The notes under the pieces: generated by a model | The model's database searches: none | The model's input: only the letters and a program-made list of their open reading frames with translations | Told to the model about the DNA's origin: nothing | In this document: positions 30,282 through 34,588 of the stretch, piece after piece | How the letters are laid out: each line of letters opens with the position of its first letter | How positions within the stretch are numbered: the stretch's first letter is position 1 | Position numbers and translations under genes: made by a program | NCBI GenBank assembly: GCA_964356785.1 | Contig: CAYHIS010000001.1 | Location: 144,998-208,997 of the forward strand | Reading direction: 5' to 3' | Length of the DNA: 64,000 bases | Source: an uncultured Rickettsiales bacterium | GTDB lineage: Bacteria; Pseudomonadota; Alphaproteobacteria; Rickettsiales; CANDYO01

Positions 30282-31478
30282 TCAATAAGCTAAGGGGTAA
30301 TTTAAGGCCATTTCTTTTTCTTGCTTCAAAATATATTCATGCATTTTGGCAATTCTTATTAAATCATTTTCTAGGGTAAATTTCTCTAAAAATATCTGGT
30401 GAGCTCTTGCTGCTTTTTCTTTCGCTTCTTCTGGATTCTTCTTGATCCAATCATAATGCGCTTTAACTTGTTTATACATTTCTTCGGGCGCTGCCTCTTG
30501 ATCGAAATATAAGAAGCTATCGCCAAAATTTTCAATGGCAAATGGATGCTTATCTGAGATAATTACAGCACCTGCAGCAGTAGCTTCAAAAATTCTAAGC
30601 CCAGGTTCTCCTGTTTTAAAATGCCATTTACTATTAGTAAGTAAATAAATTCCATTTTTATGGATAGCTTCAATGTTTTCAATTCCAGGAGCAATGAATC
30701 CATCATATATCCCTTTAGGTAAAAAACTTAAGTTATTATGCTTCCCATATATTTTCATTTCAGTATTTTGGGCAAGTAAAGTAATGAATTTTATAAAATC
30801 TTTTGAATTTCTATAATCATCCCATCCAGTTCCAACCCACATAATTTTGTTCGGCATTGCGGGTTCTTTATCTATTTTAGGAGCTAAAGATAGCATTCTA
30901 AAGCCATTAAAAGTTTTTTTCTGCTTTTCAAACATCGTTTGATACATTGCAAGGTCTTTTGCTGAAGTAAGAACAGCATGTGATAACGAAAGTAAGGTGG
31001 AAAAATCTTTTAATGGAAAAAAAGGAGGTTTATTAGAAATAACATCTTTACCATAATATTTAAAAGTATTGAGAGAAGAAAAAAGAACTAGATATTTTCT
31101 AGAACGATGCGCTAAAACTTCCATATCTAGATTTCCATCAACTTCACGTGAAAATAAAATAAAATCAGGGTCAAATTTTAAATCTTCTCTGGTGATTTTA
31201 TCTCTGTATATTTTTACTTCCCAGCCCAACTTAGAAGCAGCATATTGGAAATATTTTCCATAGGTATATTCACCACCATTATTAACCACATAAATAACTT
31301 TATATTTATCTTTGATTTGCATATCAGAATATTTTTCATCCCAATAAGTGTCAGGAATTTTTTCAGCTTCTTGCATAGCTTTAGAAAATTTATATTCATT
31401 TATTTTAGGCTTAATAACAAATTTATTTGCTAATAAAGCTACAATTAATAGTGAGATAGAAATAAGAATTTTTTTCAT
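30282..31478 (-). CDS. Glycosyltransferase, CgeB/GT1-like C-terminal domain, with N-terminal membrane anchor
   Basis: N-terminus MKKILISISLLIVALLANKF. The C-terminal region GLRIFEATAAGAVIISDKHPFAIENFGDSFLYFD...AHQIFLEKFT resembles the Glyco_trans_1_2 / CgeB-type module. ATGA start/stop overlap with the upstream GT90 gene. Confidence 0.6.
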   Translation of the reverse strand: MKKILISISLLIVALLANKFVIKPKINEYKFSKAMQEAEKIPDTYWDEKYSDMQIKDKYKVIYVVNNGGEYTYGKYFQYAASKLGWEVKIYRDKITREDLKFDPDFILFSREVDGNLDMEVLAHRSRKYLVLFSSLNTFKYYGKDVISNKPPFFPLKDFSTLLSLSHAVLTSAKDLAMYQTMFEKQKKTFNGFRMLSLAPKIDKEPAMPNKIMWVGTGWDDYRNSKDFIKFITLLAQNTEMKIYGKHNNLSFLPKGIYDGFIAPGIENIEAIHKNGIYLLTNSKWHFKTGEPGLRIFEATAAGAVIISDKHPFAIENFGDSFLYFDQEAAPEEMYKQVKAHYDWIKKNPEEAKEKAARAHQIFLEKFTLENDLIRIAKMHEYILKQEKEMALNYPLAY

Positions 31479-32749
31479 GATTTTAACGATAAGATTCTAG
31501 ATATTAAACTTTTTTTCTTCTTTGGCTTGGGCTGTTCTCTTAGCCTGATTTTCTCCATCACTTCTTCTTCCGAAGGTAAAGTAATTTTAATTTGTGAATC
31601 TTTTTGGATTCCTGCATATTCATTTAAAATAATAGCTAAATGAACGTCTATATGTTCTGGCATTAATTCAGATTTAATAAAATTTGTAGCATTATTTGAG
31701 ATTTGCTCTGCTTCATTATCATGCGTTTTTAGCCAATCAATTTGCTCAAACAAACTAGTAAGATTTTTATTTATTGGCACATAATGAACCATCGGTTTTA
31801 ATGCTGAATAAAACCATTCTATATTTTCCGTCTCTTGTTTTAAAAGGATAGAATTAGACAACATAATCCAAGGCACTCTCATCCAAGGACAAGTGTTGCC
31901 ATCAATAGAAATGAGATATTTATATTTTAAATGATCTTCCTCATTTACTCTAGCTTGAGATTTAATAGATAATAAATCCATAATTATTTTAAGATTCTCA
32001 CCATCTTCATCTTTAGAAAATTCTGTATAAGAAGTAAGCCTAGCATCAATAAGCTGCGGATAAAGCTTAGAAAATATTACAAGACTTAGACGAGGGAGCT
32101 TATCAAAATTACTTATATTATAATAATATTTCTCTTTCGCTCCATGAGCGCCACCTCGCCAGAATACTTTATTTTCCTTGGATTCCCATGGATATATATT
32201 ACTAGCTTGGGATAGTTTAGGAACTAAGCTTCTAAAGCTTTCATCGCCTTCTCTAATCATCCAGGCATCTGGAATTAGAAGCTTATCCTTTTCATATTTA
32301 GAATTTATGTTTTTTGACATCATAAAGCCAAGAACATCAAGAGTTTTTTCTTGCAGAGCATTTTCTACTATTTCATCACGCCCATAAATAATGAAATCCA
32401 CATCTTTTACTTTATATTTTTTTAAGAAATTCTGCAGATATCTAAAATATGGTTTAAAGTAAAATTGATTTATATCATAACTATCTGCATATAATTTTTG
32501 ATTCACTATTTGAAATCTCATTAAATGATATGTATTTCTTGCTTCCATATCATTCCATAAGCCCTCTAGCTGAGCCTGAGTAACTCCAATATCTCTCTTA
32601 TCATTAAATTGATGGGTTATAAAATCTACAATTGCTTTGCGCTCTAAGGAAGGATTTTGTTTAAGAAACTCTTCTGCGGATATTATTTTCAATTCTTGAG
32701 CAAATGATAAAGTTTGAAAGAATAAAGCTATAAAAATTATTATACGCAT
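31475..32749 (-). CDS. GT90 (CAP10 / protein O-glucosyltransferase-like, LpsA-like) glycosyltransferase with a cleavable-looking signal peptide; start taken at MRIIIF
   Basis: Motifs FWRGGAHG, YKYLISIDGNTCPWMR, MVHYVPINKNLTSL and WLKTHDNEAEQISNNA follow the CAP10-domain pattern. N-terminus MRIIIFIALFFQTLSFA-QE. The six extra codons in the ORF track (GTG start) lie inside repeat R2. Confidence 0.8.
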   Translation of the reverse strand: MRIIIFIALFFQTLSFAQELKIISAEEFLKQNPSLERKAIVDFITHQFNDKRDIGVTQAQLEGLWNDMEARNTYHLMRFQIVNQKLYADSYDINQFYFKPYFRYLQNFLKKYKVKDVDFIIYGRDEIVENALQEKTLDVLGFMMSKNINSKYEKDKLLIPDAWMIREGDESFRSLVPKLSQASNIYPWESKENKVFWRGGAHGAKEKYYYNISNFDKLPRLSLVIFSKLYPQLIDARLTSYTEFSKDEDGENLKIIMDLLSIKSQARVNEEDHLKYKYLISIDGNTCPWMRVPWIMLSNSILLKQETENIEWFYSALKPMVHYVPINKNLTSLFEQIDWLKTHDNEAEQISNNATNFIKSELMPEHIDVHLAIILNEYAGIQKDSQIKITLPSEEEVMEKIRLREQPKPKKKKSLISRILSLKS

Positions 32750-32752
32750 TCC

Positions 32753-32915
32753 AATACCAATCCTCACCTATAATTGAACGTTTATTAATTCGATTTTTGG
32801 TATTCTCCAAAAATAAAAAAGCATTTAATATAACCAATATTCGCAGCTTTTTTCTTATTTGTATAATACTCAAACCTCAAATCCTAAACGCTCAATATAG
32901 GTGAGGATTGGTATT
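32753..32915 (+). repeat. Palindromic interspersed repeat, family R2, full copy (about 163 bp)
   Basis: About 31-bp terminal inverted arms: aataccaatcctcacctataattgaacgttta / taaacgctcaatataggtgaggattggtatt. The interior closely matches the reverse complement of the interior of 43961-44122. Confidence 0.85.
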
Positions 32916-32995
32916 ATTTACAAATCTGGTTTATTTATTTACAAAATTATACAGAATTATATACTGTCTGCAACTCGAAACTATTATGAACTTTT

Positions 32996-34588
32996 ATGAA
33001 AAGAAGCCTTTCTATCTCAGTAATAACTATTTTATTATTTATAATTTTATATTCTCTCTCACATTTCTATTTAAAAGGAGTCGTTATTCTTGATACAAAA
33101 GGAAGAGGAAGAATTGGTAATCAATTATTTCAATATGCTGCCAGCTATGCATTAGCAAAAGAAACAAATAGTAAATTATATATTTTGGTAGAAGATGAAA
33201 AAGTTAAACATGGCTATGCAAAGCCTAATAATGGTGCATATGCTCTAGAAGAGGTTAATATTCCAAAGATAAATATTATTTATAAAACTAGATATAATAA
33301 AATATTTTTTTCACTTTTAAGAAAAAAGAATTTTTTTATCAAAACAGAATATGTTAATGAAGGAAATTTTTTTAGAATTATTACAAAGACAAAAAATAAC
33401 AAGACTTTAATAATGGACGATTGGTTTGAGTCTCCTATATTTTTCGAAAAATATAAATCTGATATTCTTAATCAGTTTCAATTCACCAAAATTGATACAA
33501 AAAGATTTGAACCACTTGTTAGAGAGTTAAGCAAAAAAGAAAGCGTATGTATACATATAAGAAGAGGTGATACGCATGTTTCAAATAGAGTGGTTCCTAT
33601 TTCATTCCAGAAAGAAGCTATGAACCTATCAAGAAAATTAATTGATGCTCCGGAGTTTTTTATTTTTTCTGATGAAATTTCAAAAGTAAAAGAGGAATTA
33701 CAAGATTTTTCTAATCTTCATTTTATAGAAGGCAATGATCCCATTGAAGATCTATATTTATTGAGTAATTGTGGAAATAATATTATTACCAATAGCAGCT
33801 TCAGCTGGTGGGCCGCTTATTTAAACAAAAACAATGGATTTGTCGTAGCCCCATTTAGGGCTTACAATGAACGCCATTTTACATCATTAAATGATATAAA
33901 ATTAGGATATGTAAGAAGATCAGTGGCTGCAATAACTTATCCAAAAAATTGGATATTACTAGAAAATGACTCATCTGATATATACACAGGCAATAGAAGA
34001 CAGCTTGAATTATGTAATGATACTGGAGATTTTCGCTCTAGATTATGCGCATTAGAATCTAATAAACCTACCGTTATTACAGCTTATTATGGCAATCCAC
34101 TTGATCACTTAAAATATTTGGAATGGGCTCAGTATTTTTTTTCTATCCCTTTTAATTTAGTAATATTTACTGATAAAGAAAATAGTAGCTGGATAAAAAA
34201 ACTAAGAAGCAGCCTGCCCATAAGAGTAATTGAAGGAAATACGCAAGAAATAAACGTTTCAAAACTAGTAAATGAAGCTATCAGATTAAATCCATATAAT
34301 TCAAAGTTTTTTGCTTGGTGTGATATTGGCGCTTTTAAGGATAAATATATTATCAGCAATAATTTTCTCGATGATGAATTTATGCTAGAAGATAAAATTA
34401 CCGTTTTTATGATCAAAGATTTTAAAGACCAAAAAGAGAAGACTTCTCCTATTAAGGCTGGGGGCATAAAGGCCTGGCAGCACGAAACACTAGATGTTTT
34501 GAATCCTATCTACCAAGATCCTAGATATGAAGGAGATCCATATTATTATCCATTATTTTATTTCTCAGATAAGAATTTTAGTCGCTAG
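32996..34588 (+). CDS. GT11 alpha-1,2-fucosyltransferase-like domain fused to a second roughly 200-aa C-terminal domain, with N-terminal membrane anchor
   Basis: GT11 motifs GRIGNQLFQYA, CIHIRRGD and NSSFSWWAAYL. The extra C-terminal region (from about aa 330, VITAYYGNP..., FAWCDIGAFKD) faintly resembles HtrL/WlaTC-type transferases. N-terminus MKRSLSISVITILLFIILYSLSHF. Confidence 0.8.
   Translation: MKRSLSISVITILLFIILYSLSHFYLKGVVILDTKGRGRIGNQLFQYAASYALAKETNSKLYILVEDEKVKHGYAKPNNGAYALEEVNIPKINIIYKTRYNKIFFSLLRKKNFFIKTEYVNEGNFFRIITKTKNNKTLIMDDWFESPIFFEKYKSDILNQFQFTKIDTKRFEPLVRELSKKESVCIHIRRGDTHVSNRVVPISFQKEAMNLSRKLIDAPEFFIFSDEISKVKEELQDFSNLHFIEGNDPIEDLYLLSNCGNNIITNSSFSWWAAYLNKNNGFVVAPFRAYNERHFTSLNDIKLGYVRRSVAAITYPKNWILLENDSSDIYTGNRRQLELCNDTGDFRSRLCALESNKPTVITAYYGNPLDHLKYLEWAQYFFSIPFNLVIFTDKENSSWIKKLRSSLPIRVIEGNTQEINVSKLVNEAIRLNPYNSKFFAWCDIGAFKDKYIISNNFLDDEFMLEDKITVFMIKDFKDQKEKTSPIKAGGIKAWQHETLDVLNPIYQDPRYEGDPYYYPLFYFSDKNFSR

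Follow-up and report, generated by a model that had tools for sequence, protein, structure and literature searches.

Three glycosyltransferases with conserved N-terminal export signals in an uncultured Rickettsiales bacterium: a possible periplasm-facing toolkit for envelope glycans

The window considered here, a 64,000-nucleotide stretch of a metagenome-assembled genome (MAG) of an uncultured Rickettsiales bacterium (contig CAYHIS010000001.1, positions 144,998 to 208,997), carries an islet of three intact glycosyltransferase genes at 30282-34588. According to the list of open reading frames (ORFs) and Pfam, their products are a GT-B enzyme related to CgeB, a GT90 enzyme resembling POGLUT, and a GT11 enzyme that is fused to a second, HtrL-like domain in an eroded state; the three ORFs are as given in a preliminary description of this DNA, and their family assignments are solid. 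All three products begin with a hydrophobic segment that is conserved in their families. These families occur mainly in intracellular bacteria, in the company of transferases typical of the Golgi and endoplasmic reticulum (ER), an O-acyltransferase-family membrane protein, and methyltransferases that bear signals. Because the signal peptide, the anchors, the exported methyltransferases, the mix of Golgi/ER-type families, and the restriction to intracellular lineages all point toward the periplasm, we propose, tentatively and with slightly more doubt than confidence, that the enzymes face this compartment and decorate an envelope glycoconjugate with donors that come from outside it, probably from the host.

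Under this proposal, the islet would encode three Sec-targeted, nucleotide-sugar-dependent (Leloir-type) glycosyltransferases. The GT90 enzyme would be freed into the periplasm as a soluble protein once its signal peptide is cleaved, the CgeB-like GT-B enzyme would be held in the inner membrane by its N-terminal anchor, and the divergently transcribed GT11 fucosyltransferase-like enzyme, whose second, HtrL-like domain appears to be decaying, would likewise be anchored. With their catalytic domains facing the periplasm, they would transfer sugars one after another, perhaps with a fucose at the end, to an acceptor that may be lipooligosaccharide (LOS) or lipopolysaccharide (LPS), another lipid-linked glycan, or an envelope protein. 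The periplasm does not itself produce nucleotide sugars or S-adenosylmethionine (SAM), so the donors would need to be either nucleotide sugars of the host, arriving by way of pores in the outer membrane, or sugars that the bacterium exports. The features of the islet are as follows (aa, amino acids; nt, nucleotides).

30119-30194, minus strand: tRNA-Val (TAC), at the islet border (ARAGORN; Rfam tRNA, 67 bits)
30282-31478, minus strand: CgeB-like GT-B glycosyltransferase, 398 aa (Pfam PF13524)
31428-31469, minus strand: predicted N-terminal signal-anchor of the CgeB-like enzyme, aa 4-17, ILISISLLIVALLA, without an AxA cleavage motif (homologue comparison)
31475-31478, minus strand: ATGA overlap of the GT90 stop and the CgeB-like start (read from the sequence)
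31475-32749, minus strand: GT90/POGLUT-like glycosyltransferase, 424 aa from the ATG at 32749 (Pfam PF05686)
32699-32749, minus strand: predicted cleavable Sec signal peptide of the GT90 enzyme, aa 1-17, MRIIIFIALFFQTLSFA, followed by QE (homologue comparison)
32754-32896, no strand assigned: palindromic repeat of 141 nt, resembling a miniature inverted-repeat transposable element or repetitive extragenic palindrome, in the divergent intergenic region (repeat search)
32996-34588, plus strand: GT11 fucosyltransferase-like and HtrL_YibB-like fusion, 530 aa (Pfam PF01531)
33008-33073, plus strand: predicted N-terminal transmembrane anchor of the GT11 fusion, aa 5-26 (homologues, model)
33077-33883, plus strand: GT11 catalytic domain, about aa 28-296 (Pfam, alignment, motifs)
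34004-34048, plus strand: inter-domain linker hairpin of the GT11 fusion, with C340 and C351 (alignment, model strands)
34058-34585, plus strand: HtrL_YibB-like domain, aa 355-530 (alignment, PF09612)

The GT90 enzyme matches Pfam PF05686 (Glyco_transf_90) over aa 74-400 with 119 bits, the cut-off being 24. Used as a single sequence, it finds the solved structures of POGLUT2 (E 6e-26) and of POGLUT1/Rumi (9.5e-17 and 3.4e-12), and the profile of its family reaches POGLUT2 at E 6e-38. The WRG and DGN motifs are conserved, and GRDEI (aa 123-127, 32369-32383) aligns with TRDYP of Rumi, its D being conserved in at least 90% of the GT90 alignment. In Rumi and POGLUT1, the Asp of this RD motif serves as the catalytic base. 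The motifs FWRGG, IDGNTCPW, and HYVPI in this protein, and GNQLFQYA, HIRRGD, and SSFSWWAAYL in the GT11 enzyme, which had been picked out in the preliminary description, are all present at the expected places. Since the catalytic motifs are intact, the enzymes should therefore work.

The N-terminus of the GT90 protein carries what is predicted to be a canonical, cleavable Sec signal peptide of classic pattern, conserved across the family. It was judged by rule, the Sec type I features being a basic n-region, an h-region of 7-15 residues, and small residues at positions -3 and -1; here MR forms the n-region, IIIFIALFF the h-region, and QTLSFA the cleavage region, with QE as the first mature residues. 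This style resembles that of LptD and SurA from the same window, whose signals end in FANFANA before AS and in HNLAFA before SH, respectively. Among the roughly 95-104 homologues with a locatable ELKxI motif, position -3 is A, S, or V in about 75 and position -1 is A or G in 83. An acidic mature N-terminus (ELKxIS) is found across the homologues, and the N-flank is more positive than the C-flank in 67 sequences, against 3-6 with the opposite bias. The signal peptide read earlier at this position (MRIIIFIALFFQTLSFA, with QE after the cut) thus appears to be a textbook case as far as prediction goes, LptD- and SurA-like and kept across the family.

At its other end, the protein closes with a basic tail, KKKKSLISRILSLKS (aa 410-424, 31478-31522), and no KDEL/KTEL ER-retention signal is found at this C-terminus. 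The homologues end in variable tails of 20-25 basic and hydrophobic residues, many of them terminating in SWF or SWI. That these tails form an amphipathic membrane-binding helix was considered and set aside, the hydrophobic moment giving weak support (median z of about 1); for the tail of the window protein the moment is 0.32, compared with an internal control median of 0.37, which is not significant.

Directly downstream, the CgeB-like enzyme overlaps the GT90 gene by the ATGA noted in the preliminary description, and the two genes are predicted to be translationally coupled through it. The protein scores 34.1 bits against Pfam PF13524 (Glyco_trans_1_2; cut-off 25), and its RIFEATAAG motif lies at 30570-30596. 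Its AlphaFold model (mean predicted local distance difference test, pLDDT, 94.9) shows an N-terminal helix over residues 2-39 and a complete two-lobe GT-B fold, for which Foldseek returns SenB, PimA, and BshA at E of about 1e-8; nothing significant was found by sequence search of the PDB. The subfamily has 114 database relatives, nearly all from Rickettsiales-type MAGs, and its homologues in Phycorickettsia are named 'Spore protein Y...' in UniRef.

The third enzyme matches Pfam PF01531 (Glyco_transf_11) over aa 15-296 with 90.7 bits (cut-off 23.9). Its motifs GNQxFQYA (aa 41-48), HxRRGD (aa 187-192), and SxFSWWxAxL (aa 267-276) are all intact, and residues G41, N42, Q43, G191, D192, W271, and W272 are invariant in the GT11 alignment. 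The AlphaFold model (pLDDT 86) finds FUT8, NodZ, POFUT1, and AtFUT1 in Foldseek (E 9e-8 to 1e-4), which corresponds to the fucosyltransferase-superfamily fold. The anchor is placed directly ahead of the GNQ nucleotide-binding motif, without a stem, and is confined to one clade, whereas ordinary bacterial GT11 enzymes of about 295 aa start at GGLGNQ. Behind the catalytic domain, the cysteine pair C340/C351 recurs in most aligned homologues of the fusion, and the model places strands at 336-339 and 350-352.

The C-terminal extension, presented earlier as an extra domain of about 200 aa, is not a new kind of domain; the region is HtrL_YibB-like, with about 75 conserved residues missing. In the window protein, PF09612 remains below threshold (14.7 bits against a cut-off of 24.1, aa 423-475), but it matches all 11 homologues tested at E<=0.01 (first member 58 bits, best E 8e-18), and at E 1e-15 to 8e-18 the domain is seen in GT11-fusion homologues of 600-660 aa. 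In the window copy, the WCDIG motif is still present, but it is without two conserved segments, about 75 aa in total, which include SPELYxIWAEK and GxDQ; judged by these losses, it is probably degenerate and inactive. The model of this part shows an alternating beta-alpha layout that ends in WCDIG. In the fold search with the whole fusion, matches to the N-terminal domain prevail; the C-terminal part has therefore been assigned a fold class from Pfam and secondary structure only. Searches of PDB sequences returned nothing significant for the GT11 fusion or for the profile of the HtrL-like domain.

Hydrophobic N-termini on all three enzymes, as the preliminary description had pointed out, go beyond chance and are conserved. 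A strict hydrophobicity criterion flags 15 of the 52 ORFs in the window; because the other 12 are known envelope proteins (LptD, SurA, BamD, RodA, and a methyl-accepting chemotaxis protein, MCP, among them), these segments are not background noise of AT-rich DNA. An uncharged N-terminal segment is present in 111 of 120 GT90 homologues, with a median h-region of 15 aa, and in 94 of 103 CgeB-like homologues, with a median of 18 aa and no cleavage motif; in the GT11 clade, 30 of 39 members have a hydrophobic segment with a median of 22 residues. The two anchored enzymes are marked by predicted signal-anchors of 18-22 residues. A type II orientation (N-in, C-out) would be expected where one transmembrane segment at the N-terminus has more positive charge on its N-flank than on its C-flank. 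By this measure, the majority of the CgeB-like family (46-52 sequences versus 18-27, about 2:1) and of the GT11 clade (19-23 versus 5-6, about 4:1) would fit N-in/C-out, but the two window proteins, with C-flanks that are equally or more basic, show no such bias.

The relatives of these proteins are found largely in intracellular bacteria. In a scan of one genome per GTDB species with two family-specific peptide patterns, 42 loci were found to encode relatives with the motifs of the GT90 family, and almost all lie in Rickettsiales/Rickettsiaceae, Chlamydiota (Parachlamydiales and Anoxychlamydiales), Legionella, Francisellaceae, and proteobacterial MAGs, a concentration that supports the preliminary description. 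The closest relatives of the window glycosyltransferases are in Rickettsiales MAGs. GT90 relatives often stand in tandem arrays of up to six genes, and in a library of 1.8 billion proteins 97 of the 113 full-length GT90 representatives at 50% identity possess an N-terminal hydrophobic segment. This segment is kept by the distant homologues in Chlamydiota, Legionella, and Francisellaceae, several of which have cysteines at recurring positions of the N-terminal region. The same MAG holds a second tandem pair of GT90 paralogues with signal peptides (locus L003, 6733-9248), about 1.5 kb downstream of a gene of the CMP-Kdo-synthetase type and beside a ParE/antitoxin pair.

The order of GT90 followed by CgeB-like recurs in other genomes, and on one metagenome contig the GT90, CgeB-like, and GT11-fusion genes form a collinear trio; GT11-HtrL fusions are also found singly among housekeeping genes elsewhere. 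Related loci contain CAP59-like, GT34, GT10, GT25, and GT4 transferases, an Acyl_transf_3 protein, and methyltransferases, as well as, on JGI contigs, a methyltransferase-protein kinase fusion and an ankyrin-repeat (Ank) protein of 1288 aa. In two related Rickettsiales clusters that were read through, a signal peptide or anchor is present on every enzyme of cytoplasmic type, the proteins with signals being GT4, CgeB-like, GT90, SAM-type methyltransferases, and two unknowns. Signal peptides of cleavable appearance, such as MKFIFLSLLIIMCSSFSSA followed by QEP, are carried by the SAM-type methyltransferases and a 240-aa protein (L047, 20180-21145; L048, 4356-5345 and 9277-9999); they are unexpected for SAM-dependent enzymes. 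Next to one GT90/CgeB-like pair lies a CAP59_mtransfer-like protein, similar to a fungal capsule mannosyltransferase (L049, 827-1861); it is anchored at its N-terminus and contains 11 or more cysteines.

Several observations weigh against a periplasmic location. In the window, the anchors of the CgeB-like enzyme (KFVIKPKINEYKFSK) and of the GT11 enzyme (KGVVILDTKGRGR) have a C-flank at least as basic as the N-flank, so that their orientation is ambiguous, and the topology of all three enzymes is derived from sequence rules. Disulfides lend no support either, the window GT90 protein containing a single cysteine and the CgeB-like enzyme none. A supply of nucleotide sugars to the periplasm is assumed, and the intracellular lifestyle of the bacterium is deduced only from its relatives, from proteins with Ank or tetratricopeptide repeats (TPR), and from low GC, in a MAG that encodes a chemotaxis receptor. 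Moreover, three of the loci from the GT90 scan are labelled as non-intracellular (Janthinobacterium, Alteromonadaceae, and Verrucomicrobia MAGs), and a scan with two patterns could miss divergent relatives in free-living bacteria.

The main alternative, already raised for LOS in the preliminary description, is an ordinary pathway in which LOS/LPS outer core or O-antigen would be synthesized at the cytoplasmic face of the inner membrane. The helices would then serve only as tethers, oriented N-out/C-in like that of WaaA, and what looks like a signal peptide in GT90 would be an anchor that stays uncleaved. The basic C-flanks of the two window anchors agree with it, as does the native base composition of the genes. 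An LPS pathway is present, since LptD and SurA are encoded in the window, and the other GT90 pair of the MAG lies near the gene of CMP-Kdo-synthetase type; annotated LPS or O-antigen loci include members of the GT11, GT25, and HtrL families, and the GT4 enzymes, the O-acyltransferase-family protein, and the methyltransferases of related clusters are also met with in polysaccharide loci. However, no waa, wzx, wzy, wzz, or waaL gene, core heptosyl or Kdo transferase, or ABC exporter is co-located with the islet in the Pfam annotation of its neighbours, and waa, wzx, wzy, waaL, and ABC-exporter genes were not found in the related loci examined. The GT90 h-region, with its median of 15 aa, is too short for a stable anchor and leads into a conserved AxA-type site and an acidic mature N-terminus, as in LptD and SurA of the window; the charge bias across the families favours N-in; the anchor is missing from ordinary bacterial GT11 enzymes; and the signal-bearing methyltransferases and the cysteine-rich CAP59-like neighbour do not fit cytoplasmic synthesis. 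The lack of adjacent waa, wzx, and wzy genes weakens this alternative, which we regard as unlikely while still deserving serious attention. Should the enzymes face the cytoplasm, the finding would be reduced to an unusual, anchored LOS toolkit.

It could also be supposed that the three proteins act as effectors, secreted or displayed at the surface, on the proteins or glycans of the host, which they would glycosylate either in the manner of POGLUT on epidermal growth factor (EGF)-type domains or by a fucosylation that yields host-like epitopes. The families are eukaryote-like, their relatives are restricted to intracellular bacteria, and the GT90 enzyme has the basic tail KKKKSLISRILSLKS. Genes of effector-like character lie on both flanks of the islet, namely a 987-aa lipase_3 and TPR protein with the class-3 lipase motif GHSLGG (26266-29229, minus strand) and a 548-aa ankyrin-repeat protein (35101-36747, plus strand), and some relatives adjoin the 1288-aa Ank protein and the methyltransferase-kinase fusion. 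Yet the uncleaved-looking anchors on two of the three enzymes and on distant GT90 homologues would tie them to the bacterium's own membrane, the islet has no linked secretion system, and tandem arrays accompanied by acetyl- and methyltransferases resemble stepwise glycan assembly rather than single-target effectors. The GT90 protein has no C-terminus of KDEL/KTEL type, and the hydrophobic-moment test of its tail was weak. An effector function is, in our view, quite improbable.

The eukaryote-like flavour of the islet that had been remarked upon is real: the GT90 enzyme matches human POGLUT2 and POGLUT1 and fly Rumi, and the GT11 clade stands beside arthropod proteins. In a 2015 study, Glyco_transf_90, of which 4.4% is bacterial, was listed among eukaryote-like domains and reported in intracellular Methylobacterium (PMC4453540). 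A recent acquisition from the eukaryotic host (the preliminary description had considered a horizontal, possibly host origin) would agree with the position of the islet beside a tRNA gene and a mobile-looking repeat, with arthropod GT11 proteins as the nearest outgroup of the anchored clade, and with a GT90 relative in a mite assembly record. In a neighbour-joining tree without support values, the anchored GT11 clade indeed groups with arthropod proteins and not with the ordinary bacterial enzymes of about 295 aa. However, the GC (0.29-0.30) and GC3 (GC at third codon positions, 0.20-0.22) of the three genes equal those of the flanking core genes, and because base composition matches its surroundings, recent host transfer is unsupported. 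The families are also deep: diverged members of each number from dozens to hundreds among sequences derived from metagenomes, and the named ones, at 40-60% identity, are bacterial MAGs and often form paralogue arrays. For GT90, more than 250 cluster representatives (50% identity) are found at E<=1e-30, and the best 150 score at least 138 bits, far above the 95 bits of human POGLUT2; the few named representatives are bacterial MAGs, except for one mite assembly record. The arthropod proteins, for their part, are named 'WbnK-like' by NCBI. We consider recent host-derived transfer highly improbable, an ancient eukaryotic origin being a separate possibility.

Several of the arthropod 'WbnK-like' GT11 proteins are N-terminally anchored; they come from Bradysia coprophila (P0155, P0157, and P0169), Folsomia candida (P0227), and Orchesella (P0167 and P0212). 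The GT90 relative of mite origin is contained in the assembly record of Oppiella nova (P0497). These GT11 and GT90 records are candidates for gene transfer between bacteria and arthropods, in one direction or the other, or for symbiont contamination.

The proposal of periplasm-facing enzymes departs from textbook knowledge, according to which the nucleotide-sugar-dependent transferases of bacteria are cytoplasmic and periplasmic ones use lipid-linked donors. Two known systems come close to it. Neisseria Lst is an outer-membrane LOS alpha-2,3-sialyltransferase that uses host CMP-NANA (PMC4324315); as proposed here, a Leloir enzyme outside the cytoplasm decorates LOS with a host-derived activated sugar. 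Lst belongs to another CAZy family and acts as a single enzyme, and its location and donor are experimental findings, whereas those of the islet enzymes are deduced. Chlamydia trachomatis imports UDP-glucose of the host into the lumen of its inclusion and makes glycogen there (PMC4829429). There too, an intracellular bacterium employs a nucleotide-sugar-dependent transferase outside its cytoplasm on a host donor. The chlamydial glycogen enzymes are reportedly exported through a type III system, and their product is a storage polymer, whereas the signals of the islet are of Sec type and the product would probably be an envelope glycan. By analogy, the two systems are precedents that would support the action of Leloir enzymes outside the cytoplasm on host nucleotide sugars.

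At the level of the single enzymes, POGLUT1, POGLUT2 (KDELC1), Rumi, and fungal CAP10 (CAZy GT90) share with the islet GT90 a homologous catalytic domain with RD, WRG, and DGN motifs, and the ER enzymes of this family have, like the prediction made here, an N-terminal cleavable signal peptide that leads to a lumen-equivalent compartment. The islet enzyme differs in being bacterial, in its family-specific N-terminal region of about 75 aa, in its basic tail where KDEL/KTEL would stand, and in its paralogue arrays, and no EGF-repeat substrate is evident for it. Bacterial GT11 enzymes of the FutC/WbnK/WbsJ type, as well as FUT1/FUT2, have the intact GT11 motifs and the fucosyltransferase-superfamily fold in common with the third enzyme. 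The former are soluble, about 295 aa long, and begin at GNQ, whereas the islet clade adds a stemless anchor and mostly an HtrL-like domain; FUT1/2 are not among the best 120 matches of the GT11 fusion. Escherichia coli HtrL/YibB (PF09612) corresponds to the C-terminal domain of this fusion family, matched in 11/11 sequences, the window copy differing by its sub-threshold score and its two missing segments. HtrL/YibB is encoded at the waa LPS-core locus, and no solved structure was found for it. The CgeB-like enzyme shares its Pfam family (PF13524) and GT-B fold with the spore-maturation glycosyltransferases CgeB/YkvP of Bacillus subtilis and differs from them as a distinct, N-terminally anchored subfamily paired with GT90.

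A broader hypothesis, which we find rather unlikely, is that Rickettsiales, Chlamydiota, Legionellales, and Francisellaceae share a Golgi-like extracytoplasmic toolkit of Sec-exported or anchored enzymes (GT90/CAP10-like, CAP59-like, GT34, GT10, GT11, GT4, and CgeB-like Leloir glycosyltransferases and SAM-type methyltransferases) that would act in the periplasm or vacuole on host nucleotide sugars and SAM. The surface glycans made in this way would be host-like, with fucosylation as one example, and the bacteria would need neither flippases nor a sugar-nucleotide synthesis of their own. If true, surface glycosylation would take place in a compartment fed by host metabolites, like the eukaryotic Golgi; complex and possibly host-mimicking glycans on genome-reduced symbionts would be explained, and new MAG markers of intracellular lifestyle would become available. 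The enzyme families themselves are known already, and what is new is the location and donor source suggested for them; no prior description of exported transferase sets of this kind was found in the literature, the one mention of relevance being that of Glyco_transf_90 in the 2015 study.

The islet sits between the tRNA-Val (30119-30194, minus strand), which had been named earlier as its neighbour, and a BMFP gene. Its Pfam-annotated neighbours are the tRNA-Val, the lipase/TPR protein, BMFP, the Ank protein, Lgt, a methyltransferase, the MCP, and CysS. It is embedded in a housekeeping core that includes lpdA, PBP1A, dxr, recN, nrdB, recJ, lptD-surA, nadE, lgt, and cysS, as well as nadA, rodA, psd/pssA, mdh, sucCD, lolCDE, hemH/hemE, and bamD. 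LptD is encoded about 8 kb from the islet, in its usual operon with SurA, and no gmd/fcl (GDP-fucose) genes are found within the 64-kb window. The GC content of the window is about 31%, and a promoter and terminator scan of the islet was uninformative in such AT-rich DNA. The window is identical to contigs of a MAG from Hainich groundwater (samples ERZ1292635 and ERZ1292638), and since the same proteins are obtained from assemblies made independently, errors of assembly do not account for the gene structures. At the right end of the islet, the last 11 nt of the GT11 fusion, in its stop region (34578-34588), are shared with BMFP (34578-34817, minus strand), which is transcribed toward it.

The repeat that was said to interrupt the cluster is present as a 141-nt palindromic element, but it interrupts no gene and lies in the divergent intergenic region between the GT90 and GT11 genes. 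The repeat search located copies at 32754-32896, 43961-44122, and 24441-24487; the family is intergenic, and the copy at 43961-44122 is itself a hairpin. The islet copy touches the start of the GT90 gene. The GTG at 32767, listed as its start and adding six codons (430 aa), falls within the repeat, which also supplies an AGGA 11 nt upstream of the ATG at 32749. Public databases hold the 424-aa form with the ATG start, and an exact look-up of the 430-aa form gave no match, a result that favours the shorter form; judged in this way, ATG 32749 is the likelier start. Directly after the copy at 24441-24487, amid housekeeping genes, is a lone gene similar to a terminase large subunit (24492-25847, plus strand; Terminase_6C, E 2e-12), which may be a remnant of a gene-transfer agent or prophage.

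Elsewhere in the window, two paralogues resembling dihydrolipoamide dehydrogenase (830-2233 and 46298-47689) share patches of 72-77% nucleotide identity, and a direct repeat of 112 nt with 79% identity (6052-6163 and 19384-19495), mostly intergenic, is unrelated to the palindromic element. A transporter gene of the EamA/DMT superfamily is located at 2416-3399 (plus strand); this superfamily also includes eukaryotic nucleotide-sugar transporters and the SAM importer of Rickettsia, and no link of the gene to the islet is shown.

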